From Deltaproteobacteria bacterium (GTDB taxonomy: Bacteria; Desulfobacterota; Binatia; UBA9968): a stretch of 64,000 nt of DNA. The position numbers and the translations under genes are program-made. The notes under the pieces are model-generated. The model did not search any database and had not been told where the DNA came from. It saw nothing but the letters and a program-made list of their open reading frames with translations. Of this stretch, positions 1-61,700 are shown piece by piece (positions within the stretch are counted from its first letter, which is position 1; each line of letters opens with the position of its first letter). The DNA lies in the NCBI GenBank assembly GCA_016193465.1, contig JACPSE010000124.1:290-64289 (forward strand), written 5' to 3'.

Positions 1-861
1 CCCTCCTCGGCCCAGGTGGTGCAAAGGGTGAAGAAGATTCTCGGCGCGAAAAAGGTGGGGCATCTGGGTACTCTGGACCCCTTTGCCTCTGGTCTTCTTC
101 CGCTGGGAATCAACGACGGGACCAAGATCGCGGATCTGTTTCTAACGGCGCAAAAAAGCTATAGCGGCGTGATCGCTCTGGGGGTGGAAACGGATACCCA
201 AGATTCGACCGGCAAGGTCCTCGAGGTGCGAGACGTTCCTTCCCTGACTCGATCAGATCTCGAGAAGCTCCAGGAAGCCTTTACCGGGACTCTTACCCAG
301 ACTCCACCCATGTATTCCGCCCTTAAGAAGGGAGGCGTGCGTCTCTACCGGCTCGCCCGCCAGGGGCGAAGCGTGCCCCGTTCACCCCGGGAGATCAAGA
401 TCGACCGGCTTCGGCTTTGGTGTCTGGGCCCGGCGGAGGTAGGAATAGAAGTTACCTGTTCCAAGGGAACCTACATCCGAACGTTGGCCGCAGATATGGG
501 GCAATTTCTCGGCTGCGGGGCCCATCTCAAAAGCCTGAGACGTTTCTCCTGTGGTCCCCTCACGTTGGAGCGAGCGGTCCCGCTGAGCGACGTCGAGACG
601 CTCAGAGAGCAGGGAAAATTGCCGGTCATTTCCTTGAATCAAGCCCTGGCGTTCCTCCGCGAGTTTCGCCTGGCGGACCATTTGCTGCCGAGGCTCAGGA
701 TGGGCCAGCAAGAGATGCTGCGCGGTTTGCCCGGGCCGGAAGAAGGAGAATGCACGATCCGCCTTCTGGATGCCCAGGGCAGTTTGGTTGCGTTGGCCCG
801 GTGGTTGGAAGGCGTCCCGAAGGGGAGATGGCGCCTCTTTCGCGTATTCGGCTCTGGTTAA
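1..861 (+). CDS. truB: tRNA pseudouridine(55) synthase TruB, 5' partial (N-terminus outside window)
   Basis: Translation contains GHLGTLDPFASGLL catalytic-Asp motif and TruB-like body; begins mid-protein at window edge. Confidence 0.85.
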   Translation, partial: PSSAQVVQRVKKILGAKKVGHLGTLDPFASGLLPLGINDGTKIADLFLTAQKSYSGVIALGVETDTQDSTGKVLEVRDVPSLTRSDLEKLQEAFTGTLTQTPPMYSALKKGGVRLYRLARQGRSVPRSPREIKIDRLRLWCLGPAEVGIEVTCSKGTYIRTLAADMGQFLGCGAHLKSLRRFSCGPLTLERAVPLSDVETLREQGKLPVISLNQALAFLREFRLADHLLPRLRMGQQEMLRGLPGPEEGECTIRLLDAQGSLVALARWLEGVPKGRWRLFRVFGSG

Positions 862-22995: not shown

Positions 22996-23113
22996 GAGTC
23001 ACTCCATGAAATTGTTTATTCGATCCGTCTTCAGATACTTTTTTTCGTTTGCGGTATAACGCACGGCTGAGCCGCCCTGTCGGTCTCAAGCCGATGGTTA
23101 GGCACCCCTAAGT

Positions 23114-23162
23114 AAGCCATTGGGGTCAAGTAAGCCATTGGGGTCAAAGCCATTGGGGTCAG
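23114..23162. repeat. Triple tandem REP-like repeat (aagccattggggtca x3) adjacent to RAYT transposase
   Basis: Three consecutive copies of a 15-mer immediately 3' of the transposase gene. Confidence 0.6.
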
Positions 23163-23166
23163 ACTT

Positions 23167-24093
23167 CTACGACTCAACAATTCTAGCAAGTCTCTCTACG
23201 TTCCGTGCAACCTGCTCGTCGGACTGCATCCGCTCGAATAGCCGCGCGACCAAGGTTCCCACCGTTGCCATGTCCCTTCGTAGATAGACCGCCACCTCTC
23301 CAATTCCATAGCCGAGTCGCCGCACTAACACGTACGCTATCATAGTCCGAGCCTTTGATACACTCCAACTACGATCCGGGCTCCTGAGCGCCTCAACTCC
23401 AATCTCCAACCCTTGGGCTAACTCCTTTAAAACAGCAGCGACGGGTTTTCGGTTAGCTGCTTTTTGCCCTTTTCCCAGCTTTTCTTGAATCTTATCCCCA
23501 AATCCTTCGGCTCCTAAAAACCTCTGATCCTCCACCTCGTAATACTCTTCCTTATGTCCATCACCGAGACCGTCAAGAACGAATCTCCTGTAGGCCCCTT
23601 TTCCACCAAAGAGCCTGAGCACTTTTGTTGTATCAAGGACTTCGGTCGGCTTGCCTTCCAAATACACCCTATGTCCACCGTAGCCATACCGCTCAGGTCT
23701 CTTCACTATCCCGGCCCGTACAGGGTTAAGATGAATGTAACGAATGAGCTCCAGTAAGTACTCATCTTTCTCACAAATAATGGCTCTGTATCTCCCCTGA
23801 AAAACGTGTCCGACCTTATGATGCCGTAAGTTAAAATACTGGCTGTAGGATTGCTGAAGTCCCTGCATGAATTTAGCCAAGGGCTGATCGGAACTCTCCA
23901 GCAATAGATGGACATGATTGGGCATCAAACAGTAAGCGTAGACCGAATAATCATATTTTCTACGGTACTTGGCCAGTCGTTCTATGTAGGCCTGATAGTC
24001 CTGGTCGTTAAGGAAGGTTTTCTGTCTTTGGTTTCCTCGAACAATGACATGGTAGAGCAGAGCGGGAGCGAACAATCGTGGACGACGAGCCAC
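23167..24093 (-). mobile_element. IS200/IS605-like Y1 (HuH) transposase of the REP-associated tyrosine transposase type, with C-terminal DnaA-C-like HTH domain
   Basis: YHVIVRGN, CLMPNHVHLL HuH motif, catalytic Tyr region; C-terminal ARTMIAYVLVRRLGYGIGEVAVYL resembles DnaA C-terminal HTH; lower GC than surroundings. Confidence 0.75.
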
Positions 24094-24305
24094 GACCTAT
24101 CTCGATGACCCCTATCTCCTCCCCTATCTCCTCCCCCTTGCACGTTATAGTGGCGCGTTTTGATCGCCTGGCGTACTTCTACCCCAAAGCGGGGTAACCT
24201 TCATATTCCCTTCTGCCCTGACTATCGGCTGACTCTTTAGACGAATGGGAATCAGCAGAGTTCAACAGGCCAAATGGCTGCGGGGTGTTAAACGGAAGGA
24301 AAGAC

Positions 24306-25533: not shown

Positions 25534-25620
25534 CAAGCCCTTCGGGATTTCAAATAGCATATTTCAAATCTCAGATCTGAAATATGAGATCTGCAATGTG
25601 AGATTCCGAGCGGAGCGAGG
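25534..25620. repeat. About 88-bp intergenic palindrome-containing element, copy A (second copy inverted at 42751..42840)
   Basis: caagcccttcgggat..ttcaaatagca..tcagatctgaaat..tgagattccgagcggagcgagg; near-identical to the reverse complement of 42751..42840. Confidence 0.7.
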
Positions 25621-30531: not shown

Positions 30532-31623
30532 TTATTGGACAAACAATTTTTTGATCTGCTCGATCACCTCGGGTGGTTGGTCCATGCCCTCTTTAGCCAT
30601 GGTCTGCAGCTCTTCACCTTTCGTCGGGCTCACTTCTACTCGTCCCTTTTTCGCCTCGGCTACAAGGTCGGGGTCTTTCGTTGCCTTTTCGTAGGCTTCC
30701 CGCAGGATCTTAACCCGGTCCGGCGGCGTGCCCGGAGGGGCCAGAAGTGAGCGGGCCCATTCGCCGCCTAACAACATGGCTTGAGCGACACGACGGCTGG
30801 TGGCGGCGGTCTTGTATTCGTTCATGAGTTCGAAAATGGTGGGGGCGTCAGGGACGCGGCGATTCCTCTTGCGCCCACTCTGGGCGAGGAATCGAACAAA
30901 GCCTTTTTTTTGCCAGCTCAAAAAAGGCTCCCGGGTAAAGTAAGTGGAGACTGTCAATCCCATGCATATGACCTCGCCCCTTTCCATTGCCAGGGCGATC
31001 TCGCTGCTGCCTGGATAGCCCACTACGTTATCTATCTTTGCCCCTATGGTCTCCTCCAAGATTCTAGACATGACGTAGTCCGAGCTGCCAACGCCTGTCG
31101 AGCCGCACTTGGGCGGCTCCTTGGACTTGACGACATCTCCAATGGACTTATAGGGCGCATCGGCTCGCATGAATATCATCATATCGTCATTTTCCAATGA
31201 GCCGATCCAGTGGAACTTGAGAAGATCAAACTTGACCTCTTTATGCCCCGCAAGCTGGCTCAAGTAAACGTTGTTATGGGGCGTCAGGAGAGTTAAGCCA
31301 TCGGGCGTGGCCACTCCGTAGACGTAGTTGGCCGCGATCACGGATCCGGCGCCTGGCATGTTCTGGACAATCATCTCCGGGTTGCCGGGGATATATTTTC
31401 CCAAGTGGCGCGAGACAATCCGGGCTGCCCGGTCATAACCTCCGCCGGCGCTGAGGCCAACAACGATCCGAATTGTCTTGCCCTTATAGAAGGGTTCTTG
31501 GGCGCAGGCCGAAGTGACGGTTGAAAGGTTAAAATAAAGGCTTAAAGGGATGAAGAGATAAAGGGTTAAAGGGATTAAACCCTTGAACCCTGAGACCCTT
31601 AAACGCTTAAACTTACGCAGCAT
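30532..31623 (-). CDS. TTT-family periplasmic substrate-binding protein (TctC/Bug-like), copy 2; N-terminal signal region encoded by repeat sequence
   Basis: IRIVVGLSAGGGYDRAARIVSRHL...QNMPGAGSVIAANYVY; paralog of copy 1; first about 30 codons overlap the aagggtt repeat. Confidence 0.65.
   Translation of the reverse strand: MLRKFKRLRVSGFKGLIPLTLYLFIPLSLYFNLSTVTSACAQEPFYKGKTIRIVVGLSAGGGYDRAARIVSRHLGKYIPGNPEMIVQNMPGAGSVIAANYVYGVATPDGLTLLTPHNNVYLSQLAGHKEVKFDLLKFHWIGSLENDDMMIFMRADAPYKSIGDVVKSKEPPKCGSTGVGSSDYVMSRILEETIGAKIDNVVGYPGSSEIALAMERGEVICMGLTVSTYFTREPFLSWQKKGFVRFLAQSGRKRNRRVPDAPTIFELMNEYKTAATSRRVAQAMLLGGEWARSLLAPPGTPPDRVKILREAYEKATKDPDLVAEAKKGRVEVSPTKGEELQTMAKEGMDQPPEVIEQIKKLFVQ
31523..31615. 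repeat. aagggtt-type short repeat cluster, copy 1 (related copy at 41515..41565)
   Basis: ttaaagggatgaagagataaagggttaaagggattaaacccttgaaccctgagacccttaaacgcttaaac with internal inverted symmetry. Confidence 0.55.
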
Positions 31624-42750: not shown

Positions 42751-42840
42751 AGTCCTCGCTACGCTCTGAATCTCAAATCGCAGATTTCAGATCTCAGATC
42801 TGCTATTTGAAATTTGAGATTTGCCATCCCAAAGGGCTTG
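42751..42840. repeat. About 88-bp intergenic palindrome-containing element, copy B (inverted relative to 25534..25620)
   Basis: Reverse complement reads caagccctttgggatggcaaatctcaaatttcaaatagcagatctgagatctgaaatctgcgatttgagattcagagcgtagcgaggact. Confidence 0.7.
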
Positions 42841-47777: not shown

Positions 47778-47850
47778 AGAAGGCATTAGGCAATAGGCAG
47801 AAGGCAACAGGAAGATGATTTAACTCTCGCCTCACGCCTTTCGCCTGAAA
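47778..47850. repeat. Heptamer-arm hairpin element (AGGCNNG arm / complementary arm), upstream of secA
   Basis: aggcattaggcaataggcagaaggcaacagg-aagatgatttaactctcg-cctcacgcctttcgcctg. Confidence 0.6.
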
Positions 47851-47855
47851 GCTTT

Positions 47856-50800
47856 ATGCTTAACTTCATCAAAAAAATCATCGGCACGAAAAACGAGCGC
47901 GAGATCCGGCGCATTCAGCCCCTGGTGGAGCAGACTAACGCCCTCGAACCCCAATACGAGAAGCTCACCAACGCGGAGCTAAAGGCCAAGACTGACGAGT
48001 TTAAGAAAAGGATCCAGGAGGCGACCTCAGCCTGCCGCGCCGCGCTCGAAGAGAAACAAGCTCAGGCTGCGGCGGTAACCGGGGAGGAGCGCGAGGAGCT
48101 GAAGGCTGAGGCGGAGGGGATCGAGAAAGAATTGCGTCTGGCCGGAGCTAAGGTTCTCGATAGCCTCATCCCCGAGGCCTTTGCCGCAGTGCGCGAGGCC
48201 TCCAGGCGCACGATAGGGCTGCGCCATTTTGACGCCCAGCTCATTGGCGGCGTGGTCCTGCACGAGGGCAAGATCGCCGAGATGAAGACCGGTGAGGGCA
48301 AGACCCTGGTGGCCACGCTCCCGTTCTATCTGAACGCCCTTACAGGAGATGGAGTTCACCTCATCACGGTCAACGACTATCTCGCGCGCCGGGATGTCCA
48401 ATGGATGGGACCGATTTACCATCTGCTGGGTCTTTCCGTGGCCTCCATGGTGCACGAGGCGAGCTATCTCTTCGACCCTGCTTACATCACCAAGGACTAC
48501 CGTTATCTGAATCTCCGCCCCATCTCGCGCAAAGAGGCTTACCTGGCGGACATCACCTACGGGACCAACAATGAGTTTGGCTTCGATTATCTGCGCGACA
48601 ATATGAAATTTTCCCTGGAGGAATATGTCCAGCGGGATCTGAATTACGCCATCGTGGACGAGGTCGACAATATCCTGATCGACGAGGCCAGGACGCCGCT
48701 GATCATCTCTGGTCCTGCGGAGGAATCGACCGACAAGTACTACATCATCGATCGGATTATCCCCAAGCTGCAGCGCGGCGCGGTCATTCAGGGGGATGCC
48801 TCGCAGGAAAAGCGCGCCGAGATCGAGGCGCAGGGCGACTATACGGTCGATGAAAAGAGCCGGACGGTTACGCTGACCGAGACCGGAGTGGCCAAGGTCG
48901 AGCGCCTGCTCAGTATCCACAACCTCTACGATCCGCGGCAGATCGATACCCTGCACCACGTTAACCAGGCCCTTAAGGCCCACGCGCTTTTTAAACGCGA
49001 TGTCGATTACGTCATTAAGGATGGCGAGGTGATCATCGTCGACGAATTCACCGGCCGCCTCATGCCCGGAAGGCGCTGGTCCGACGGTCTCCATCAGGCG
49101 ATCGAAGCCAGAGAAGGGGTGCACATTCGCGAGGAGAATCAAACCCTGGCGACGATCACGATTCAGAACTATTTCCGCATGTACAAAAAGCTCGCCGGCA
49201 TGACCGGGACAGCCGACACCGAGGCCACGGAGTTCAAGAAGATCTATAAGCTCGACGTGGTGGTTGTCCCAACGCACAGGAAGATGATCCGCAATGATAA
49301 TGCCGATATGGTCTACCGGAGCGAGAAAGAGAAGTTCGACGCGGTAGTGGAGGAGATTGAGGCGTGCGATCAGAAAGGCCAGCCGGTTTTGGTCGGCACG
49401 ACCTCGGTGGCGAAGTCCGAGCGTCTCTCCCGGATGCTCAAGAAAAAAGGGATCAAGCATAACGTGCTGAACGCCGTAAATCACGAGGCGGAGGCGAGCA
49501 TCATCGCCCAGGCCGGTCGGTTTGAGGCCGTGACCATTGCCACTAACATGGCCGGGCGGGGGACCGATATTTTGCTCGGTGGCAATCCGGAATTTTTGGC
49601 CCGTTCGGACATGGAGAACGAATGGATCAGCCGGGCCTCCAAACTGCCGTTGCAAGGGGCCACGCGATACGAAGATGCGCTGCGGGAGCTAAGGGAGAAA
49701 TGCGAAGAGGAGATCCAGCGGGTGGAAGCGCGTTATCGCAAGGAAGCGGAGATCCACGAGCAGAAACGAGGGAATGCGCTGAAAAGGGCCACCGAGATCC
49801 AGCGCCGCTTAAGAGAGCTTTCCCCGTTTCGAGGGCTGCGGCAGGAATACGAAGAGGTCTCAACCAGCGAATTGATCGAGGCGCTGCATGAGCTGCGCGG
49901 CATTCCCGGGGGTTACCTTAAAGTTAAGGAGAAGCTGGAAGAAACCCTTTTTAAGGAAGGGGATGCGGGAGCTATCGAGGCCCGGCGCGCCTTTGAAGAG
50001 GCCCGCGACTCCTTCGGAGAATACCTGGATCGCTGGCAGCGGGGGGATGGTGAAAGACGCGAACTCATGGAGGCCCTGGACGAGAAGAGGCGCAACTACG
50101 AACAGCGTATTAACGATTACGAGGTCGGGGTGACGAACGCGGTTCTGTCGCAGGGGGAACATGCTCCCTTGGTCGCGGAATACGAGGAGACTCGCCGGGC
50201 GTATGAAGAGGCGGAGGCGCGCTGCGAGGAACTCCGGCGTCCTTACGAGGAGGCGGTTCGTGAGGCGCAGAGGAGTTACGAGGCCAAACGGCAGGAGTAT
50301 GTTCGCATAGTCGAGGAGATTCGAGAACAGTTGGAGAAGGCCCCGGAAGCCTACCGGCAGAGATACGAGGAGATCCTGGAAGGGTATAACAAGCTGTGCG
50401 CCGAAGAGAGGGAGAAGGTTATTGCCGCCGGGGGGCTCCACATCGTCGGGACAGAACGGCACGAGAGCCGCAGGATCGACAACCAGTTGCGCGGCCGTTC
50501 CGGCCGCCAGGGCGATCCGGGTTCGTCCCGTTTCTACCTTTCGCTGGAAGATGATCTCATGCGCATCTTTGGCGCGGATCGGATTCAGGGCATTATGAAC
50601 CGCTTGGGCATGGAAGAGGGCGTGCCTATCGAGCATCGCCTGGTGACCCGGGCCATAGAGAACGCCCAGAAAAAGGTCGAGGCCCATAACTTCGATATCC
50701 GCAAACACCTCCTGGAATACGATGACGTTATGAACAAGCAGCGGGAGGTGATCTACCACCAGAGGAGGGAAGTCCTCAAAGGGGAGAACCTGAAAGAGGA

Positions 50801-51452
50801 TGTCCTGGAAATGGCCCAGGGCTTGGGTGAGGATATGGTGGGGCGCTGCGTGGATAAAAATCTCCACCCCTCGGAGTGGGACCTCAGCGGGCTGCGGGAG
50901 GCGCTCTATCACCAATTTAATTTTCGTCTGGATCTGAAGCCAGAGGAACAGGAAGATTTGAGCGTCGAGAAGCTGCAGGAAATTGTTGTGGAGAAGCTAA
51001 GCCAGACCTACGAGAAGAAGGAAGAGCGGTTCAGCTCTCCTATGCTCCGGCAGTTGGAGAAGATTATCATGCTCCAGACGATCGACAGCTTGTGGAAGGA
51101 CCACCTCCTTAATATGGACCATCTGAAAGAGGGGGTTGGGTTGCGTGGTTATGGCCAGAAGAACCCTTTGCAGGAGTATCAGAAGGAAGGGTTCGAGATG
51201 TTTGAGGAGATGGTCCGCCAGATTCAAGTGGATGTCGTGCAGAAGCTCTTTACCATTGAAATGGCGCGGGAAGGCGCTTTAGAAGAGATGGAAGTTCAGC
51301 GTCGCCCGCAGAGAATTGTTTTGAGCCATGGCGGCGACGGGGAAGAGCCGGCGCGGGTGACCCCGATCAAGCGGCAGGGCAGTAAGGTTGGCAGGAACCA
51401 GCCTTGTCCCTGCGGCAGCGGCAAGAAGTACAAACGTTGTTGCGGCAAATGA
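47856..51452 (+). CDS. secA: Preprotein translocase ATPase SecA with about 270-aa expanded variable (VAR) subdomain
   Basis: Walker [42 protein letters not shown]-terminal zinc site [14 protein letters not shown]; 1198 aa with E/R/A-rich insertion about 49600..50430. Confidence 0.95.
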
Positions 51453-51490
51453 GAACGTGGCTCGTGATCGTGGTTCGTGCTCGTCGTGGG
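51453..51490. repeat. CGTG/CACGA-rich repeat, left flank of four-helix-bundle gene
   Basis: gaacgtggctcgtgatcgtggttcgtgctcgtcgtggg. Confidence 0.5.
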
Positions 51491-51532
51491 TAAGAATACT
51501 TGGCAGATCGCCCCAAAGAGGTCGCGGAATCA

Positions 51533-51889
51533 ATGAAATCCGTTGAGGACCTAGACGTCTTCAAGCTTGCCCATGAACTCACTCTAAGAATCTACAAAGT
51601 AACGGCTGATTTTCCGCGAGAAGAGAGCTTTGGCATTGTCTCGCAGATGAGACGAGCGGTAAGCTCTGTAGGAGCGAATTTAGTTGAGGGATCCATGAGG
51701 CTTAATAGCCGGGAGTTCAGGCAGTTTGTAGGTATTGCTAGGGGCTCAGCGGCTGAAGTCGGCTACCAACTACTTTTGGCCAGGGATTTGGGCTATATCT
51801 CAAATCAGGTCTACGAAGAAACTCGGTCAGACTACGACAGAGTAGGTCAGATGCTTACTTGCCTGGGTCAATCACTGGATCGTGAGTAG
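51533..51889 (+). CDS. Four-helix-bundle protein (23S rRNA intervening-sequence protein family, TIGR02436-like)
   Basis: DLDVFKLAHELTLRIYKVTADFPREE..GIVSQMRRAVSSVGANLVEG...ARGSAAEV.YQLLLARDLGYI. Confidence 0.7.
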   Translation: MKSVEDLDVFKLAHELTLRIYKVTADFPREESFGIVSQMRRAVSSVGANLVEGSMRLNSREFRQFVGIARGSAAEVGYQLLLARDLGYISNQVYEETRSDYDRVGQMLTCLGQSLDRE

Positions 51890-51950
51890 CGAGGACGAAC
51901 CACGAGCACTATCAATGAAACGAACACGAGCAACGAGCACGAACACGATT
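51890..51950. repeat. CGTG/CACGA-rich repeat, right flank (inverted relative to left flank)
   Basis: cgaggacgaaccacgagcactatcaatgaaacgaacacgagcaacgagcacgaacacga. Confidence 0.5.
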
Positions 51951-53172: not shown

Positions 53173-54618
53173 TTAGTTTCCTAGTTTTTTCCTCAGTATC
53201 TCATTGACCATTTGGGGGTTGGCCTTGCCCCGGGTGGCCTTCATGACTTGCCCCACCAGAAAGCCGAAAACCTTCTCTTTTCCGGCGCGATAGTCTGATA
53301 CCTGCTCCGGCTGGCCGGCAAGCACCTCGTCGATGGCCCTTTCGATGTTGCCCGCGTCCGTGACCTGCTCTAAGCCTTTCTCGCGGACTATCCTGTCCGG
53401 GGACTCTCGTCGTTCCAGCATCTCTAGAAATAGAGCTTTGGCCATCTTGCCGCTGATCTTTCCTTCATCGATCATGCGGACCATCTCGGCTAAATGATCG
53501 GGGGCAATCGGCCAGGCGGTGATGCGGAGGTTCTCATCCAGTTTCTTCTCCCTGATGATCCGAAAGAGATCGCCCATGACCCAATTGCTGATCGCCTTGG
53601 GATTGGGGTGGCTCTTCACTGCCGCTTCGAAGTAGTCCGCCACATCCCTGCGACTTGTGAGAAGCTCGGCATCGTAGAGGGGGAGAGCGTATTCGGACAT
53701 AAAGCGTTCCTTTTGCTGCTCTGGCAGTTCCGGAAGGCCGGCCCTGATCGCTTCGATCCATTTTTCCTCGATGATAAGGGGGAGCAGATCTGGCTCCGGG
53801 AAATAGCGGTAGTCGTGGGCAAACTCCTTGGAGCGCATGGAGCGGGTGATTTCACGCTCCGCGTCCCAAAGCCTGGTTTCCTGGATAAGTTTGCCTCCTT
53901 CCGAGAGGGTCTCGATCTGCCTCCGGATCTCATATTCCAGGGCCTTTTCTACCGCCTTGAAGGAGTTCATGTTCTTGATCTCAACCTTGGTGCCGAACTC
54001 GCTGGAGCCGCGCGGACGCACGGAAATATTGGCATCGCAGCGAAAGGAGCCTTCCTCCATGTTGCCATCGCAGACCTCTAGATATTGCAAAATGGCTCTC
54101 AGATTCTTGAGGTAGCGGCCGGCCTCTTCGGCGCTGCGGATATCCGGCTCGCTGACGATCTCCATGAGCGGGACGCCGGCTCGATTCAGATCTACCAGAC
54201 TGTAGTCCCCACGGACGTCGTGGATGTTTTTTCCCGCGTCTTCCTCCATGTGGATGCGGGTCAGGCGGATTTTCTTTTTGCCCCCATTGGACTCGATCTC
54301 GATGTGACCGTTGCGGCATAAGGGCAGCTCGTACTGGCTGATCTGATAGCCCTTGGGAAGGTCGGGGTAGAAGTAGTTTTTTCTGGCCCAACGGCTGAAG
54401 CGCGCGATCTCGCAGTGAGTGGCCAGCCCTGTGCGGACGGCGAATTCAACGACTTTCTTGTTGAGCACCGGCAAGACTCCAGGGAATCCCATGCATACCG
54501 GACAGCTATTTTGGTTGGGATGTGCCCCAAAACGTGTCGAGCAGCCGCAGAAAATCTTGGACTCGGTTAAAAGCTGGGCGTGGACCTCAAGGCCGATGAC
54601 AGGCTCGTAGTTGCTCAT
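53173..54618 (-). CDS. gatB: Asp/Glu-tRNA amidotransferase subunit B
   Basis: [16 protein letters not shown]..., C-terminal YqeY-like domain. Confidence 0.95.
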
Positions 54619-55016
54619 TTCTTACCGCCTATCTTTTCCCGAATCTCAGTAACGATGGCTTTCGCGTCTTTCAGTGCATTTTGAGCATCCGCCTTCGTAG
54701 GCTCCCCCGCGGGCAGCAGGCCTGGAAGGGCATCGGCATATCGTGTCGGAATGTAGAAACGATCCAGGTTCCGGCACAGTGTCCGCCACTTCCGCAGCTC
54801 AGTGCGGATTCCAGCGTCGTAGAGAAGCATCTGCTCCAGGGAATGGCTCTTGGGATGAGTTCCTAGTCGGGCATCCAAGAGTCCCTTTAGTGCTTTTTCA
54901 ACGGCCTGCTGGGCGTGAAAGCAGGTTTGCCGGAAAATGCTCCGAGACAAGGCGTATTCAGCCATCTCGATGTCTTCATTCGCAAGTTCCAACCAGCGCT
55001 CAGCCTCAGGCTTCAT
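54615..55016 (-). CDS. HEPN domain protein (putative toxin/partner of adjacent nucleotidyltransferase)
   Basis: HEPN helices with R..(4-6)..H-type motif ([12 protein letters not shown]) ; 133 aa; 4-nt overlap with upstream NTase gene. Confidence 0.65.
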
Positions 55017-56203
55017 ACCGGAAAAAGCACTTGCCCTTTCTTGAGAATCTCACCCCTCACGAAGAAGTGCCCCTCCTGCTCCGCCCGATTAAACTCCTCA
55101 GGGGTATAGACAATGGCATTCAGGCCAACCCGTGGTTGGAGCAGGTCCATGACTTCTCGGATGCGATCCAAGAAGCTCGCCGGAGTCGATTTCACAATAG
55201 CCAGATCAATATCGCTCCACTGGTGAACCGCATCTGGGGAATGGTCGGCAAGGGAGCCGAAGAGGATAATACGCTCAGGACGATACTGTTCGACCAACTT
55301 GCTCTTGATTCGTTCCAGCTCTCGTAGGAGCGTTTCTCTCCTGTCAAAGAGCTTCCGGAAGATTTTTTTGAGCTCTGGCCTTAGGGGGTGAGCCGCCCGC
55401 GGGTTTGTAAACAGACGACTATGGACTCTCACATCGTGAAAGTGTGGGACTAGCTTCATCCATACGAGAGCGCTTATGCGGGATGTTCCTCCCCTATCGT
55501 CAGGGAGACAAAAGAGCCCATCGGGGACTCGCTCGTTTCTAATTTCACGTCTTAGAGCATTAGCCTTGTAAACCTCATCCCCCCAGAGGACCGACTCCAT
55601 ATCTTCTAAGCGGCCTCCGCGTGCTCCGACAACCAGGACCGTCGGCTTCCCGGACGGGAGTTGGTCAAGTTCTTTCGTAATTCGTTGACGCAACTCCTGA
55701 GAGGCCGGAATTCCTCGGATCTCTGAATTATCTCTAGCGGTGGTCGGATCAAAGGTTGCCTCGACGGTGACGCGACCATAGACACGCGTATCATCAGCAA
55801 CGGTATCCGACCCGTAAACAGGCGGGAACCTATCCTCCCTGGTCGTGACCTCGAGGAATACTTCTTGCCCCTTTAACTGGCACTTCAAGTCACATTTGGC
55901 GGCGCCAACTTTCGGCGCCAGTTCCAACTTGTCGGCAACGGGAGCTAGCATGGCTGCAACTCTTATTTCGTACATCGCCGCGAGGAACTGGCCGGCGTTT
56001 TGCAACAACGTTCGATAGGCGGTTGCGATTTTAACGCATGGCAAGTGACGTGTCAGAAGCTCAAGGTCTTGTTCCACCTGCCACAGCGGAAGGATGCCGA
56101 GTTGCTCAAACTCGCGCTTCCGCGCACTAAGGTTGCGACTCCCAAGCAGTTCGGCTAGACGAGGGAACTTATTCGAGATTAGAGAAGTCAACGTATTATC
56201 CAT
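55013..56203 (-). CDS. Minimal nucleotidyltransferase (MNT) domain protein with about 290-aa N-terminal domain of unknown function
   Basis: C-terminal [10 protein letters not shown]...DIDLAIV (GS...D.D) pol-beta-type NTase motif; start MDNTL overlaps gatA stop by 8 nt; upstream ORF extension overlapping gatA rejected. Confidence 0.6.
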
Positions 56204-57960: not shown

Positions 57961-58066
57961 ATAGGCGAATAGGCAATAGCAATCAGCGGACTTAGGCGTG
58001 AGGCGGTAGGCGTCAGGCAACAGTTGAGCCTTTTCTATCGCCTATTGCCTGATGCCTGTTGCCTTC
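57961..58066. repeat. Heptamer-arm hairpin element between gatC and rnhB
   Basis: ataggcgaataggcaatagc...gcgtgaggcggtaggcgtcaggcaacag-ttgagcc-ttttctatcgcctattgcctgatgcctgttgcc. Confidence 0.6.
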
Positions 58067-58118: not shown

Positions 58119-58961
58119 ATGAAGGAAAGTTGGAATAGCGCCGAACTGGAGGAAGAAGCCTATTCTCGCGGCTTTAAGTGTGTCGCCGGGCTGGACGAAG
58201 TAGGCAGGGGACCGTGGGCGGGTCCGGTGGTGGCCGCCGCTGTGGTTCTCCCTCCGGGTGTGAGCCATCCAGAGATCAAAGACTCGAAACTCCTTACCGC
58301 TAAGAAACGGGAGGAACTAACGATTTGGATTAGAGAGCGGGCCGTGGCGTGGGGATTAGGGGTTGTTGAGTCCGAAGAGATCGACCGGATGAATATCCTG
58401 AAGGCGAGCCTTCTGGCGATGTCCCTCGCTTTTAAGCGCCTCAATCCGCTCCCGGATTACCTGCTGATTGACGGGCCGCATAAAATTCCGTTGGAGTTCC
58501 TAAGGGCAGAAGAAGCCAGGCAACAGGCAGAAGACAGGCGAGAGGCAACAGGCAACAGGCTAGAGCCGGGAGGCGACAGGAGGGAGGAAGATGATTTAGC
58601 TCTCGTCTCAAGCCTCACGCCTTCCGCCTCATGCCTTTCCCCTCACGCCTCGCGCCTCACGCCTCATGCCTTGCCCTTCCAGAAGGCGATCAAGAAGGGC
58701 GACCGGTTGTCTATTTCTATTGGCGCGGCCTCTATCGTGGCCAAGGTGGCGCGGGATGAGATAATGAAAAAATATGACAGCCTGTATCCTGAATACGGAT
58801 TTAGGCAGCATAAGGGCTACGGATCCCCTGCGCACCTGGCAGCGCTCCGTCGCTATGGCCCGGCGCCGATTCACCGCAGGAGCTTCAGGCCGGTGCGGGA
58901 ATGTCTCAGCTTACCAGCCTCCCAGCTTCCTAGCCTCCTAGCTTGGAGGCGAGAAGGCTAG
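58119..58961 (+). CDS. rnhB: Ribonuclease HII carrying an in-frame about 56-aa low-complexity insertion derived from a heptamer hairpin element
   Basis: GLDEVGRGPWAGPVV, LLIDG, KGD..S.SIGAASIVAKV, GYGS motifs; insert between LIDG and KGD (58514..58676); RBS aaaggag before ATG 58119. Confidence 0.85.
   Translation: MKESWNSAELEEEAYSRGFKCVAGLDEVGRGPWAGPVVAAAVVLPPGVSHPEIKDSKLLTAKKREELTIWIRERAVAWGLGVVESEEIDRMNILKASLLAMSLAFKRLNPLPDYLLIDGPHKIPLEFLRAEEARQQAEDRREATGNRLEPGGDRREEDDLALVSSLTPSASCLSPHASRLTPHALPFQKAIKKGDRLSISIGAASIVAKVARDEIMKKYDSLYPEYGFRQHKGYGSPAHLAALRRYGPAPIHRRSFRPVRECLSLPASQLPSLLAWRREG
58514..58676. repeat. Heptamer-arm hairpin element inserted in-frame within rnhB
   Basis: aggcaacaggcagaagacaggcgagaggcaacaggcaacaggc...ggaggaagatgatttagctctcg...cctcacgccttccgcctcatgcctttcccctcacgcctcgcgcctcacgcctcatgcc; centre matches 47778 element. 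Confidence 0.7.
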
Positions 58962-59340: not shown

Positions 59341-59425
59341 AGAAGGCGTGAGGCGTGAGGCATGAGGCGCGAGGCGTGAGTAAAAACTTCTTCTGGTTGC
59401 CTGTTGCCTTTCGCCTCAAGCCTAA
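59341..59425. repeat. Heptamer-arm hairpin element between yraN and serS
   Basis: aggcgtgaggcgtgaggcatgaggcgcgaggcgtgag-taaaaacttcttctg-gttgcctgttgcctttcgcctcaagcct. Confidence 0.6.
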
Positions 59426-60708: not shown

Positions 60709-60852
60709 AAAAACAGTTTTGAGTGGTGAGTTTTTAGTTCTTAGTTGACAGAAGTTTCCTTTCAACTCAAAACTAATAACCTAAAATTAAAAACTTAAAT
60801 GTTGAGCTGGAGCCTATTTACTATTGACTATTTACTGTTTACTGTAATTGCA

Positions 60853-60941
60853 GGAGGGGTGGCCGAGCGGTTTAAGGCACCGGTCTTGAAAACCGGCGTC
60901 CACTGCGTGGACCGCGAGTTCGAATCTCGCCCCCTCCGCCA
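60853..60941 (+). tRNA. tRNA-Ser (anticodon TGA)
   Basis: GGAGGGGTGGCCGAGCGGTTTAAGGCACCGGTCTTGAAAACCGG + long variable arm + GAGTTCGAATCTCGCCCCCTCCGCCA; near-identical architecture to E. coli tRNA-Ser(UGA). Confidence 0.9.
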
Positions 60942-60955
60942 CTAGTTTGGATAAA

Positions 60956-61015
60956 ACGTGTCCCGTGTTCGTGATTCGTGTTCGTACGAGCACGAGAAAC
61001 GAGCACGATCACGGC
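60956..61015. repeat. CGTG/CACGA-rich inverted repeat between the two tRNA-Ser genes
   Basis: cgtgttcgtgattcgtgttcgtacgagcacgagaaacgagcacgatcacgg; same family as flanks of four-helix-bundle gene. Confidence 0.5.
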
Positions 61016-61029
61016 TTTTACTTCACCAC

Positions 61030-61122
61030 GGAGAGATGGCCGAGCGGTCGAAGGCGCACGCCTGCTAAGCGTGTGTACCCCTTAAAAGGGTACCGAGGGT
61101 TCGAATCCCTCTCTCTCCGCCA
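61030..61122 (+). tRNA. tRNA-Ser (anticodon GCT)
   Basis: GGAGAGATGGCCGAGCGGTCGAAGGCGCACGCCTGCTAAGCGTGTG + long variable arm + GGGTTCGAATCCCTCTCTCTCCGCCA. Confidence 0.9.
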
Positions 61123-61158: not shown

Positions 61159-61584
61159 CTAGCGCCGCCCGGTCACGGAGGCGTGGATAGCTCTCCACCT
61201 CTTCAGTTGTTCGGGGGAAAGGAGCCTGTTAACTTTTCTTTCTGTGGCAATTTCGCCGACCCTCAAATTTGTCTGGATGTCAGCTTTCTCTCTTAACCTT
61301 TTTTCAATCTGCGCCGGATCAGCTTCCTTCTCGGTAAGATCCTCCAATTCGTCGTCGATAAGGACAATCTTTGCGCTGGCTAGGCGGCGCTGTCTAAATT
61401 GTTGCTTCCAAATGGCACTGATCTCGCTTACCTGATTGTCGGTCAATTTCAGATCATCCCTTACATCTATGATTAGCGGGACAGGGTCCGCATAGGCCAC
61501 AGTAGAAAAGCTGATAGCTAAGAGCTGACAGCTAAGAGCAGAGAGGGCGAGAGAGAGCAGAAAAACCTTTAAACGGCTTTGCAT
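61159..61584 (-). CDS. Periplasmic LTXXQ-motif (Spy/CpxP-like) protein, copy 1; signal peptide encoded by heptamer repeat
   Basis: Signal peptide; LTDNQVSEI and LSPEQLKRW motifs. Confidence 0.65.
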   Translation of the reverse strand: MQSRLKVFLLSLALSALSCQLLAISFSTVAYADPVPLIIDVRDDLKLTDNQVSEISAIWKQQFRQRRLASAKIVLIDDELEDLTEKEADPAQIEKRLREKADIQTNLRVGEIATERKVNRLLSPEQLKRWRAIHASVTGRR

Positions 61585-61589
61585 CGTAA

Positions 61590-61700
61590 TAGCTGAAAGC
61601 TAAGGGCTGAAGGCTAATAGCTAAGAGCGAATAGCTGAGGGCTAAGAGCTTAGACAAACGGCTCTCGGCTCTAGACCCTAAGCTCTAGAGCTGTTTTTCT
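61590..61700. repeat. Heptamer tandem repeats (AGCTNAG/GGCTNAR type) between the two LTXXQ genes
   Basis: agctgaaagctaagggctgaaggctaatagctaagagcgaatagctgagggctaagagcttagac; 7-nt periodicity. Confidence 0.6.

Follow-up and report, generated by a model that had tools for sequence, protein, structure and literature searches.

An in-frame hairpin of tandem heptamers in the RNase HII gene of a Binatia bacterium

Introduction

Intervening sequences of 23S rRNA genes that carry an open reading frame (ORF) of the S23p or IVP type are known from Leptospira, Coxiella, Brucella and Xanthomonas (PMC4990558, PMC11270868). That of Coxiella is a selfish element of 428 nt, which has a terminal stem of 28 bp, a loop containing an S23p ORF, and three GACAGAT heptamers, the number of which varies between strains; it is excised by RNase III, and its origin is still unexplained (PMC4990558). 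The encoded proteins make up the family PF05635, a relative of the Avd protein found in diversity-generating retroelements (PMC10053308). The present analysis concerns a hairpin of tandem heptamers that lies in frame within rnhB, the gene for ribonuclease HII (RNase HII), in a 64,000-nucleotide stretch of contig JACPSE010000124.1 (assembly GCA_016193465.1, Deltaproteobacteria bacterium, Binatia; hereafter the window). The favoured interpretation, which is considered likely as a whole, is that this insert is a gene-less palindrome of AGGC units, sitting in an insertion hot spot, that belongs to a class of the 23S intervening-sequence type and is read through in rnhB.

Like the 23S intervening sequences, the rnhB insert is a stem-loop insertion with terminal inverted repeats that contain tandem heptamers, and its distribution is likewise sporadic and its mobility suspected but unexplained. 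The PF05635 loop gene of the intervening sequences is also found in copies of two heptamer families described below, those built of AGGC and of CGTGNTC units. In contrast to the intervening sequences, the insert has no loop ORF, lies in a protein-coding gene rather than in helix 25 or 45 of 23S rRNA, and is apparently translated instead of being excised; the 3x3 mismatches in its AGGC arms make excision by RNase III doubtful, and most heptamer hairpin copies found here are intergenic, not in rRNA. Many classical 23S intervening sequences also lack an ORF.

Dispersed palindromes that occur in frame in unrelated housekeeping genes, at positions compatible with the protein fold, and that are translated are described for Rickettsia (Ogata et al. 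2000, as summarised in PMC10969869). According to that summary, the Rickettsia palindromic elements differ in being about 150 bp long, in encoding a conserved peptide and in having no tandem 7-mers; they belong to another clade, have no sequence relationship to the insert, and are not reported to undergo replacement of one family by another at a single site. In-frame palindromic inserts in bacterial enzymes being known from Rickettsia, the one described here stands out by its tandem heptamers and by the turnover of its site between near-identical strains. Repetitive extragenic palindromic (REP) sequences and the hairpins formed by them (REPINs) are also short, abundant, mostly intergenic, present in both orientations and clustered (PMC3116915, PMC2817692, PMC3733652). 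The AGGC hairpins are longer than REP palindromes (65-170 nt versus 20-40 nt) and made of tandem units, and the GTAG or CGTC tag of REP and REPIN is absent from the ends of all four AGGC hairpins of the window.

Tandem 7-nt units of many sequence types, mostly intergenic, are shared with the short tandemly repeated repetitive (STRR) sequences of cyanobacteria (PMC4679880, PMC4692102). STRR sequences differ in being described as direct tandem arrays, and no description was found of them as paired inverted arrays around a PF05635 gene or as in-frame inserts in enzymes. Among plasmids, the PF05635 protein of the window has its nearest homologues mostly in Nostocales, and several of them are flanked by such heptamers. 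Mazel et al. 1990 and Elhai et al. 2008 are reportedly sources on these cyanobacterial heptamer repeats. Finally, transposable elements of the miniature inverted-repeat class (MITEs) that fuse with host ORFs in frame, such as Coxiella QMITE, ERIC and BOX, are similarly non-autonomous, hairpin-forming and occasionally translated (PMC5896051, PMC10969869, PMC3184786). Unlike for MITEs, the comparison here turned up neither a target-site duplication nor a transposase-bearing insertion sequence as parent; there are parent-like elements with matching arms, but their cargo is PF05635. To our knowledge, the PF05635 protein has no transposase activity.

Results and discussion

A heptamer hairpin inside RNase HII

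The host gene, the insert and the parts of the insert are as follows.

58119 to 58961, plus strand: rnhB, encoding RNase HII of 280 aa, host of the insert.
58503 to 58673, plus strand: in-frame hairpin insert of the AGGC family in rnhB, 171 nt or 57 codons.
58517 to 58563, plus strand: left arm of the insert, AGGCAAC, AGGCAGAAGAC, AGGCGAG, AGGCAAC and AGGCAAC units (Tandem Repeats Finder, period 7, and regular-expression scan).
58587 to 58605, plus strand: apical core of the insert, GAAGATGATTTAGCTCTCG.
58607 to 58676, plus strand: right arm of the insert, NNNGCCT units, among them CACGCCT, TCCGCCT, CATGCCT and CGCGCCT (Tandem Repeats Finder, period 7, 9.3 copies).

The rnhB gene is preceded by an AAGGAG ribosome-binding site, and its product is identified as RNase HII by its Pfam domain and its RNase H-like fold. 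The RNase_HII match (E 1.8e-34) is broken into two stretches, the best sequence matches in the PDB are 3o3g and 7uwe_C (E about 2e-41), and an AlphaFold2 model built from 33 sequences matches the fold of the Escherichia coli (7uwe_C) and Thermotoga maritima enzymes with a Foldseek target-normalised TM-score of 0.83. The interval between the IDG and KGD motifs comprises 73 residues, compared with 8-10 in solved RNase HII structures: residues 120-191 align to residues 108-119 of T. maritima 3o3g and residues 121-189 to residues 111-120 of E. coli 7uwe_C, an excess of about 59-60 residues. Trimming the flanking residues common to all relatives (PHKIPLEFL and PFQKAIK) gives the bounds 58503-58673. 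The initial annotation, which had placed about 56 extra codons between LIDG and KGD at 58514-58676, had thus recognised a real segment with essentially these bounds, and its view that the insert belongs to the same hairpin repeat family as intergenic DNA holds as well, given the shared 19-mer core and the AGGC and GCCT units.

Seven AGGC motifs in the left half and eight GCCT motifs in the right half are spaced mostly by 7 nt, and Tandem Repeats Finder delimits period-7 arrays at 58517-58560 and 58607-58671. The insert folds as a single long imperfect hairpin (-82.1 kcal/mol, z -3.6, equalled by 0 of 200 dinucleotide shuffles; z -4.06 for the trimmed segment 58503-58673) with an apex of only about 40 nt. 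The arms pair solely through 4-bp AGGC:GCCT blocks, and the 3-nt spacers, typically AAC against GTG, are unpaired, so that the two orientations of a hairpin can be told apart. The 19-mer core GAAGATGATTTARCTCTCG has exactly two copies in the window, at 58587-58605 and 47811-47829, where 0.03 are expected and none of 100 shuffles reaches two. By eye, the core also resembles the apex of a hairpin between yraN and serS read as its reverse complement (GAAGAAGTTTTTACTCACGCCTC). There were no matches to the 19-mer core in the related loci compared with it and none to the core motif AGGAAGATGATTTARCTCTCG in Joint Genome Institute (JGI) metagenome contigs; the core was therefore dropped as a signature of mobility, its exact form being private to this genome.

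As had been proposed, the insert is in frame. The rnhB frame is the only one without a stop codon across all 171 nt, the three frames of the opposite strand all carrying stops, and the AGGC and GCCT cores occupy all three codon phases. An inverted AGGC element in rnhB would put a TGA in frame (AGG CGT GAG GCG TGA), so that only the observed orientation can be read through. The peptides encoded by rnhB with the insert include ARQQAEDRREATGNR and LTPSASCLSPHASR. An intron or intein was also considered and rejected, the insert being too small, with no matching motifs and no Rfam match, and the open frame arguing for read-through.

The AlphaFold2 core is confident, with block means of the predicted local distance difference test (pLDDT) of 84-97 over the greater part of the N-terminal half. 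The model has a helix of dropping confidence at residues 125-143 (10-residue block means 82, 57 and 51), residues 145-182 have a pLDDT below 50, and the insert is placed between the strands 114-118 and 187-191. The suggestion that it forms a surface loop is compatible with this predicted low-confidence segment between two core strands. The carboxylates D26, E27, D118 and D195, located in the motifs GLDEVGRG (D and E), IDG and KGD respectively, are invariant in the alignment of relatives; we take them to be the catalytic residues by analogy with the T. maritima enzyme. The catalytic core is intact and the rnhB flanks of the insert are under strong purifying selection in comparison with relatives. 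From the model and this conservation, RnhB appears to be a working enzyme that carries a disordered loop, the insert presumably being translated and the enzyme functional.

A misjoin of repeat-rich intergenic DNA into rnhB during assembly might be suspected from the metagenome sources, in which repeats promote chimeras, and from the 1.65x coverage of the contig of one relative, L086. Both flanks of the insert are rnhB, however, and the 280-aa protein was found identical on an independent Logan contig (P0001), so that an artefact of this assembly is unlikely. Inserts of the same type moreover occur in independent ENA, JGI, NCBI and Logan assemblies, and an artefact can hardly be credited.

A second hairpin contributes to the same gene.

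58907 to 58960, plus strand: hairpin of 7- and 8-mers (CCAGCYT units) that encodes the last approximately 18 residues of RnhB and its stop codon.

The resulting C-terminal tail is CLSLPASQLPSLLAWRREG. The homologue P0008 ends in the same tail, the tails of other relatives are unrelated, and in L087 another block of repeats stands at the 3' end of rnhB.

The AGGC family in the window and in metagenomes

Besides the insert, three hairpins of the AGGCNNN/NNNGCCT type are present in the window, making four in all (47781-47846, 57961-58064, 58503-58673 and 59344-59423).

47781 to 47846, plus strand: intergenic AGGC hairpin upstream of secA, with the orientation and core of the rnhB insert.
57961 to 58064, plus strand: AGGC hairpin in the intergenic region between the divergent genes gatC and rnhB.
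59344 to 59423, plus strand: AGGC hairpin between yraN and serS, in the orientation opposite to that of the rnhB insert.

Units with AAC spacers form the left arm in the rnhB and secA hairpins, and the arrangement is reversed in the gatC-rnhB and yraN-serS hairpins. The insert resembles the reverse complement of the yraN-serS hairpin, 0.7 kb downstream, at 95% over 21 nt and at 93% over 30 nt, the latter match being between the right arm of the insert and the left arm of that hairpin; the shared stretch includes the rare CGCGCCT unit. The yraN-serS hairpin also occurs at the orthologous site in L081, L086, L087, L088, L105 and L111. In L086, L088, L105 and L111 the hairpin and its loop GAGTAAAAACTTCTTC are near-identical, with coding flanks that are synonymously saturated. 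The hairpin ends just upstream of the serS start and possibly terminates or stabilises a transcript.

The AGGC family is a dispersed repeat with a maintained consensus. Its arm reads AGGCAAC AGGCGAG AGGCAAC AGGCAAC AG across many loci and genomes, and the 21-mer AGGCGARAGGCAACAGGCAAC was found in 30 JGI metagenome contigs, in two of them at yraN-serS and in the other 28 at unrelated, mostly intergenic places. Four of these metagenome copies (L094, L106, L107 and L116) share a long loop, as judged by eye. In metagenome contig Ga0184640_10054266 (L114, approximately 627-647, minus strand), short arrays of AGGC units are in frame and sit in loops of a Kelch-repeat/Big_5 protein (LLPVASRLSPRSGHTATLL), which is a second case of the family within coding sequence. 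The 21-mer had no match in viral contigs; 16 viral-contig matches to pure (AGGCAAC)3 were judged to be generic tandem arrays and set aside. An Rfam scan of the window assigned no family to any hairpin, matched two tRNA-Ser genes alone and detected no rRNA.

Conservation of the arms follows the nucleotides. Between the window and L086, the rnhB flanks are 76% identical, with 50-58% identity at third codon positions, yet the left arm is identical at 43 of 43 nt, including its irregular unit order; L088 has 48 of 54 nt of the left arm in common with the window. The approximately 14 third positions in the identical arm would all be unchanged by chance with a probability of roughly 0.55^14 = 2e-4 by our own arithmetic. 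The identity of the arm despite diverged flanks, together with the occurrence of the cores in all codon phases, indicates that DNA or RNA is conserved and not the peptide.

Turnover at the rnhB site among relatives

The nearest RnhB homologues are annotated as Candidatus Binatia or 'Deltaproteobacteria RIFCSP'. The DNA of orthologues was obtained by exact-protein look-ups, and the comparison sequences are all metagenome assemblies; a scan of genome collections for orthologous loci returned mostly distant phyla, L001, L002 and L013 being the Binatia among the matches listed. Motif-based extraction could not parse 12 of the 120 nearest homologues. All 108 that could be measured have 10-73 residues between IDG and KGD (nearly all at least 20), with the window RnhB having the longest segment, and none of the 108 is as short at this site as the E. 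coli or T. maritima enzyme. Recurrent insert peptides include RQQA..GNR / PHASRLTPH, VQKVQDVQ / LNGFxRFEQ, EDRGWRMED / SSIFDPRSS and DEGGRMK / IHPSSLIPHP, each type corresponding to a different heptamer family.

Of 12 rnhB alleles seen as DNA, nine are repeat hairpins, which belong to several heptamer families: those of the window, L083, L086, L088, L121 and L122 have period 7 (z -2.3 to -5.4), those of L085 and L089 are weaker, and that of L120, made of 7-8-nt units, was seen by eye and has no significant fold (z 0.05). L081 and L087 have short forms, and the segment of L123 is decayed (z +1.5). In L001, with an RnhB that is 53% identical, the 48-residue segment no longer folds as a hairpin (z -0.5); old inserts thus decay. 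The orthologous segments being repetitive, the alternative that orthologues carry an ordinary non-repetitive stretch of equivalent length does not apply.

Retention of the insert as a disordered linker or interaction segment that Binatia RNase HII needs, its repeat nature being incidental, would fit both the preserved reading frame and the presence of extra residues in every measurable close homologue, none being as short as the E. coli and T. maritima enzymes. It is nevertheless very unlikely, as neither length nor sequence is conserved, unrelated peptides occur in near-identical backgrounds, conservation acts on nucleotides independently of codon phase, and the same DNA is also found between genes.

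Near-identical strains show how quickly the site changes. L081, L083, L085, L086 and L087 share the order gatB-gatA-gatC / rnhB-yraN-serS as far as their contigs reach, and their rnhB flanks are 89-99.7% identical, mostly at least 95%, and these five flank backgrounds carry five different rnhB alleles. A single one of 288 upstream flank positions separates L085 from L086, yet their arrays are unrelated, being built of GTTCAAN and AGGCAAC units, respectively. L081 and L083 differ by a clean indel of a 54-nt hairpin, and L087 is a deletion remnant of an L086-like allele that keeps two units of the right arm. In an alignment of seven near-identical-strain assemblies (five distinct alleles), about 93% of columns are invariant outside three places, namely the hairpin between gatC and rnhB, the insert and the 3' end of rnhB. 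At the protein level, eleven clusters with at least 95% identical flanks each hold differing inserts, and insert types recur in different flank backgrounds. In the gatC-rnhB intergenic region, too, the outer flanks are conserved, and the hairpin between them belongs to another family in every related strain. Elements are also nested: at the yraN-serS site of L081, a palindrome of TTCGAAA units takes the place of the apex of the AGGC hairpin, and in rnhB of L122 an inner hairpin lies within outer arms of the AGGC type. In L083, the GAGGATN family is present both in rnhB and in the intergenic region 0.5 kb upstream.

Throughout the clade, the rnhB loop is therefore a hot spot where hairpins turn over quickly under a filter for open reading frames. 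The single landing in this genome that the initial annotation had envisaged gives way to an old, clade-wide hot spot with rapid replacement, since segments of this kind are general among the homologues and near-identical strains carry different families or remnants; its reading of an in-frame copy of a repeat family at a site modelled as disordered is retained. The rnhB site turns over in this way across a whole class of uncultured bacteria, and its alleles offer a natural series of insertions, 10 to 73 residues long, that separate two of the catalytic residues of RNase HII.

The same observations could in part be produced without mobility. An immobile, ancient rnhB palindrome might have evolved in place by slippage of 7-nt units, template switching between arms, gene conversion with nearby hairpins and recombination between strains; the seemingly different families would then stem from very rapid concerted evolution together with such recombination. 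Throughout the clade the site stays the same, alleles of a single type differ in unit number, the unit order in rnhB is the reverse complement of that in the yraN-serS hairpin 0.7 kb away, L083 has GAGGATN units in rnhB and 0.5 kb upstream, no target-site duplication was found, and the replacement at yraN-serS in L081 is confined to the apex, all of which would agree with such a history. Evolution in place is nonetheless unlikely, because gradual change cannot generate the unrelated arrays of L085 and L086 on flanks with a single upstream difference, because a defined arm sequence recurs at many unrelated loci and genomes, and because gene-carrying versions exist.

A contingency locus, in which gain or loss of 7-nt units would frameshift rnhB on and off and so tune ribonucleotide excision repair and the mutation rate, is another conceivable role of the insert. 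Seven is not a multiple of three, unit number varies between alleles, and heptamer copy number varies in the Coxiella intervening sequence (PMC4990558). Such switching is highly improbable in view of the imperfect units, which lower slippage, the mostly intergenic location of the elements and the in-frame state of all alleles, the last being biased by the protein search.

Gene-carrying elements with PF05635

A hairpin element between secA and argJ carries a gene, and a gene-less relative of it is found further downstream.

51456 to 51948, plus strand: gene-carrying hairpin element of the CGTGNTC family, between secA and argJ.
51456 to 51487, plus strand: left arm of the CGTGNTC element.
51533 to 51889, plus strand: PF05635 gene of the CGTGNTC element.
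51890 to 51948, plus strand: right arm of the CGTGNTC element.
60964 to 61013, plus strand: gene-less CGTGNTC hairpin between two tRNA-Ser genes, which matches the PF05635 element's right arm at 89% over 28 nt.

The gene at 51533-51889 matches Pfam 23S_rRNA_IVP (E 6.4e-36), with an additional sub-threshold match to bAvd, and sits exactly between inverted CGTGNTC arrays. The arms pair at 51464-51483 and 51890-51909 (20 nt, 90% complementary) and over a 12-nt stretch (100%), with 406-448 nt between them; an inverted match from flank to flank (E 1e-3 or better) is found for 2 of 59 genes of the window, this gene among them. The AGGC family has gene-carrying relatives as well. In L101 (= L110), a PF05635 gene (E 1.8e-40) lies exactly between AGGC arms (32 nt, 84% complementary, 375 nt apart), and in L103 a degraded PF05635 copy lies between arms almost identical to those of the yraN-serS hairpin of the window; both contigs were originally retrieved by the AGGC arm pattern alone. 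As in the window, argJ of the distant Binatia chromosome L001 has a PF05635 gene immediately upstream; CGAATNA 7-mers follow that gene. Viral contigs held no close PF05635 relative. These gene-carrying relatives, and the second hairpin that encodes the 3' tail of rnhB, go beyond the initial annotation.

A tblastn search of plasmids with the PF05635 protein of the window returned 20 records, mostly from Nostocales. Ten loci were examined: the gene is enclosed by inverted 7-mer arrays in six of them and lies between direct arrays in two.

L140, Nostoc edaphicum: inverted 7-mers, 34 nt at 97%.
L144, Calothrix brevissima: inverted 7-mers, 36 nt at 89%.
L146, Nostoc ATCC 53789: inverted 7-mers, 31 nt at 94%.
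L148, Geminocystis: inverted 7-mers, 24 nt at 96%.
L149, Stanieria: inverted 7-mers, 15 nt at 100%.
L143, Azospirillum lipoferum: inverted 7-mers (GAGGACN units), 36 nt at 86%.
L142, Pseudanabaena: direct arrays on both sides.
L147, Gemmatirosa: direct arrays on both sides.
L141, Calothrix PCC 7716: weak arrays.
L145, Aulosira: weak arrays.

The Azospirillum locus is a 23S rRNA gene (Rfam large-subunit rRNA, 492 bits), and its PF05635 element, lying inside that gene, is thus a classical intervening sequence. In L140, L141 and L142, the PF05635 genes are wedged between neighbours of related function (nrdB and nrdA, two toxin-secretion genes, and cas6 and cas4, respectively); one of the three is on the strand opposite to its neighbours, and they look like small inserted units. 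The literature search, which was incomplete, found no paper tying heptamer-repeat hairpins in general to the PF05635 family.

Taken together, the AGGC family is most likely a non-autonomous form of elements of the 23S rRNA intervening-sequence type, the full-length form of which most likely consists of inverted tandem-heptamer arms enclosing a loop with a gene for a PF05635 (S23p/IVP, Avd-like) protein. Gene-less copies would derive from or depend on gene-carrying ones. The 57 extra codons of rnhB would be such a gene-less copy of a dispersed palindrome with an AGGCNNN arm, an NNNGCCT arm and a variable apex, occupying the loop between the strand with the third putative catalytic Asp (IDG) and the KGD motif. 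The ribosome would read through it, and RNase HII, otherwise intact, would gain a predicted disordered loop, first hydrophilic and then rich in Ser, Pro and His. As strains diverge, hairpins from several heptamer families may enter the site, nest in the apex, replace one another and be lost, and selection would pass only lengths that are multiples of three with no stop in the frame used; for the AGGC family in rnhB, the orientation would be fixed too, owing to the TGA on the opposite strand. If the elements preferentially occupy and replace the apexes of existing hairpins, sites would stay fixed as their contents change. Candidate movers are the PF05635 protein, exchange among neighbouring hairpins through replication template switching or gene conversion, and the repair of breaks at the tips of cruciforms.

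Several points weigh against this interpretation. The rnhB insert itself contains no PF05635 gene, and either gene loss from a full element or gene insertion into pre-existing hairpins could have given rise to the two forms. The alleles compared show no transposition signature and no observed movement, and the one clean pair, L081 and L083, has no target-site duplication (GGGGCTGA[A]GTTCTTCC versus GGGGCTGA[54+1 nt]GTTCTTCC). The data fit insertion, deletion and shuffling of alleles by homologous recombination alike, remnants alone being polarised, and mosaic flanks are evident among the strains. The first approximately 100 nt of serS in L086 are identical to those of L088, though the rnhB genes are only about 70% identical, the join being at the shared AGGC hairpin; this could be a recent recombination or a chimeric join in the low-coverage L086 contig. 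The in-frame state of the homologues comes from protein searches, which frameshifted alleles would escape. As AGGC:GCCT blocks are separated by 3x3 mismatches, the hairpin may be less important than the tandem units. The ten plasmid loci are the best tblastn hits, a small and non-random sample, and heptamer repeats are common in Nostocales anyway.

A wider grouping, of which we are rather doubtful, would unite the Binatia heptamer hairpins, the cyanobacterial STRR-type arrays around genes for 'four helix bundle protein', the 23S intervening sequences and the gene-less hairpins in one element class, with PF05635 elements as the autonomous form acting on the arms, and with homing, nesting and replacement at hairpin apexes. 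If correct, it would account for sites that stay fixed and yet turn over rapidly, in rRNA helices as well as in a housekeeping enzyme's loop. Three puzzles would become testable together given a common architecture: how 23S intervening sequences arose and how they move, what the widespread S23p or 'four helix bundle' proteins do outside diversity-generating retroelements, and why bacterial genomes have heptamer repeats in excess.

Other features of the window

About a dozen further hairpins or arrays in the window are built of other 7- or 8-mer units. The intergenic ones at 25542-25609, 31535-31612 and 42769-42821 represent other families (ATTTCAA/ATCTCAG, TAAAGGGT and AATCTCA, respectively), some units of which carry stop codons, and these families are absent among the rnhB alleles examined. 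The hairpin at 25542-25609 was rejected as a further in-frame insert, as it sits in a spurious upstream extension of an M24 peptidase ORF.

A transposase gene was considered as a possible mobiliser of the hairpins.

23167 to 24093, minus strand: REP-associated tyrosine transposase (RAYT; Y1_Tnp E 9.4e-17; NF047646 85.4 bits, cut-off 80).

The RAYT has a DnaA-C-like C-terminal domain. Its flanks (23104-23163 and 24109-24195) contain three copies of an 18-mer (GACCCCAATGGCTTACTT), 2.3 copies of a 12-mer (GGGGAGGAGATA) and ACCCC..GGGGT hairpins, and GTAGAAGT is present on both sides. These flanking repeats have no other copy in the window, there are no heptamer hairpins at the RAYT, and the repeats are unrelated to the heptamer hairpins; the lead was dropped, though not excluded.

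SecA (47856-51452) has 1198 aa with a long, charged, coiled-coil-like insert, and a typical SecA is about 300 aa shorter. The SecA insert is non-repetitive and was rejected as a heptamer-repeat insert. Between gatB and gatA, at 54615-55330, lie a HEPN gene (E 1.4e-26) and a nucleotidyltransferase gene (Polbeta family, weak, just below the Pfam cut-off), which look like an inserted toxin-antitoxin module; in relatives such as L082-L086, gatB and gatA are adjacent, without this pair between them. Directly downstream of serS, at 60764-61122, there are two tRNA-Ser genes (anticodons TGA and GCT), each with heptamer arrays or hairpins on either side (60764-60843, 60964-61013 and 61509-61654).

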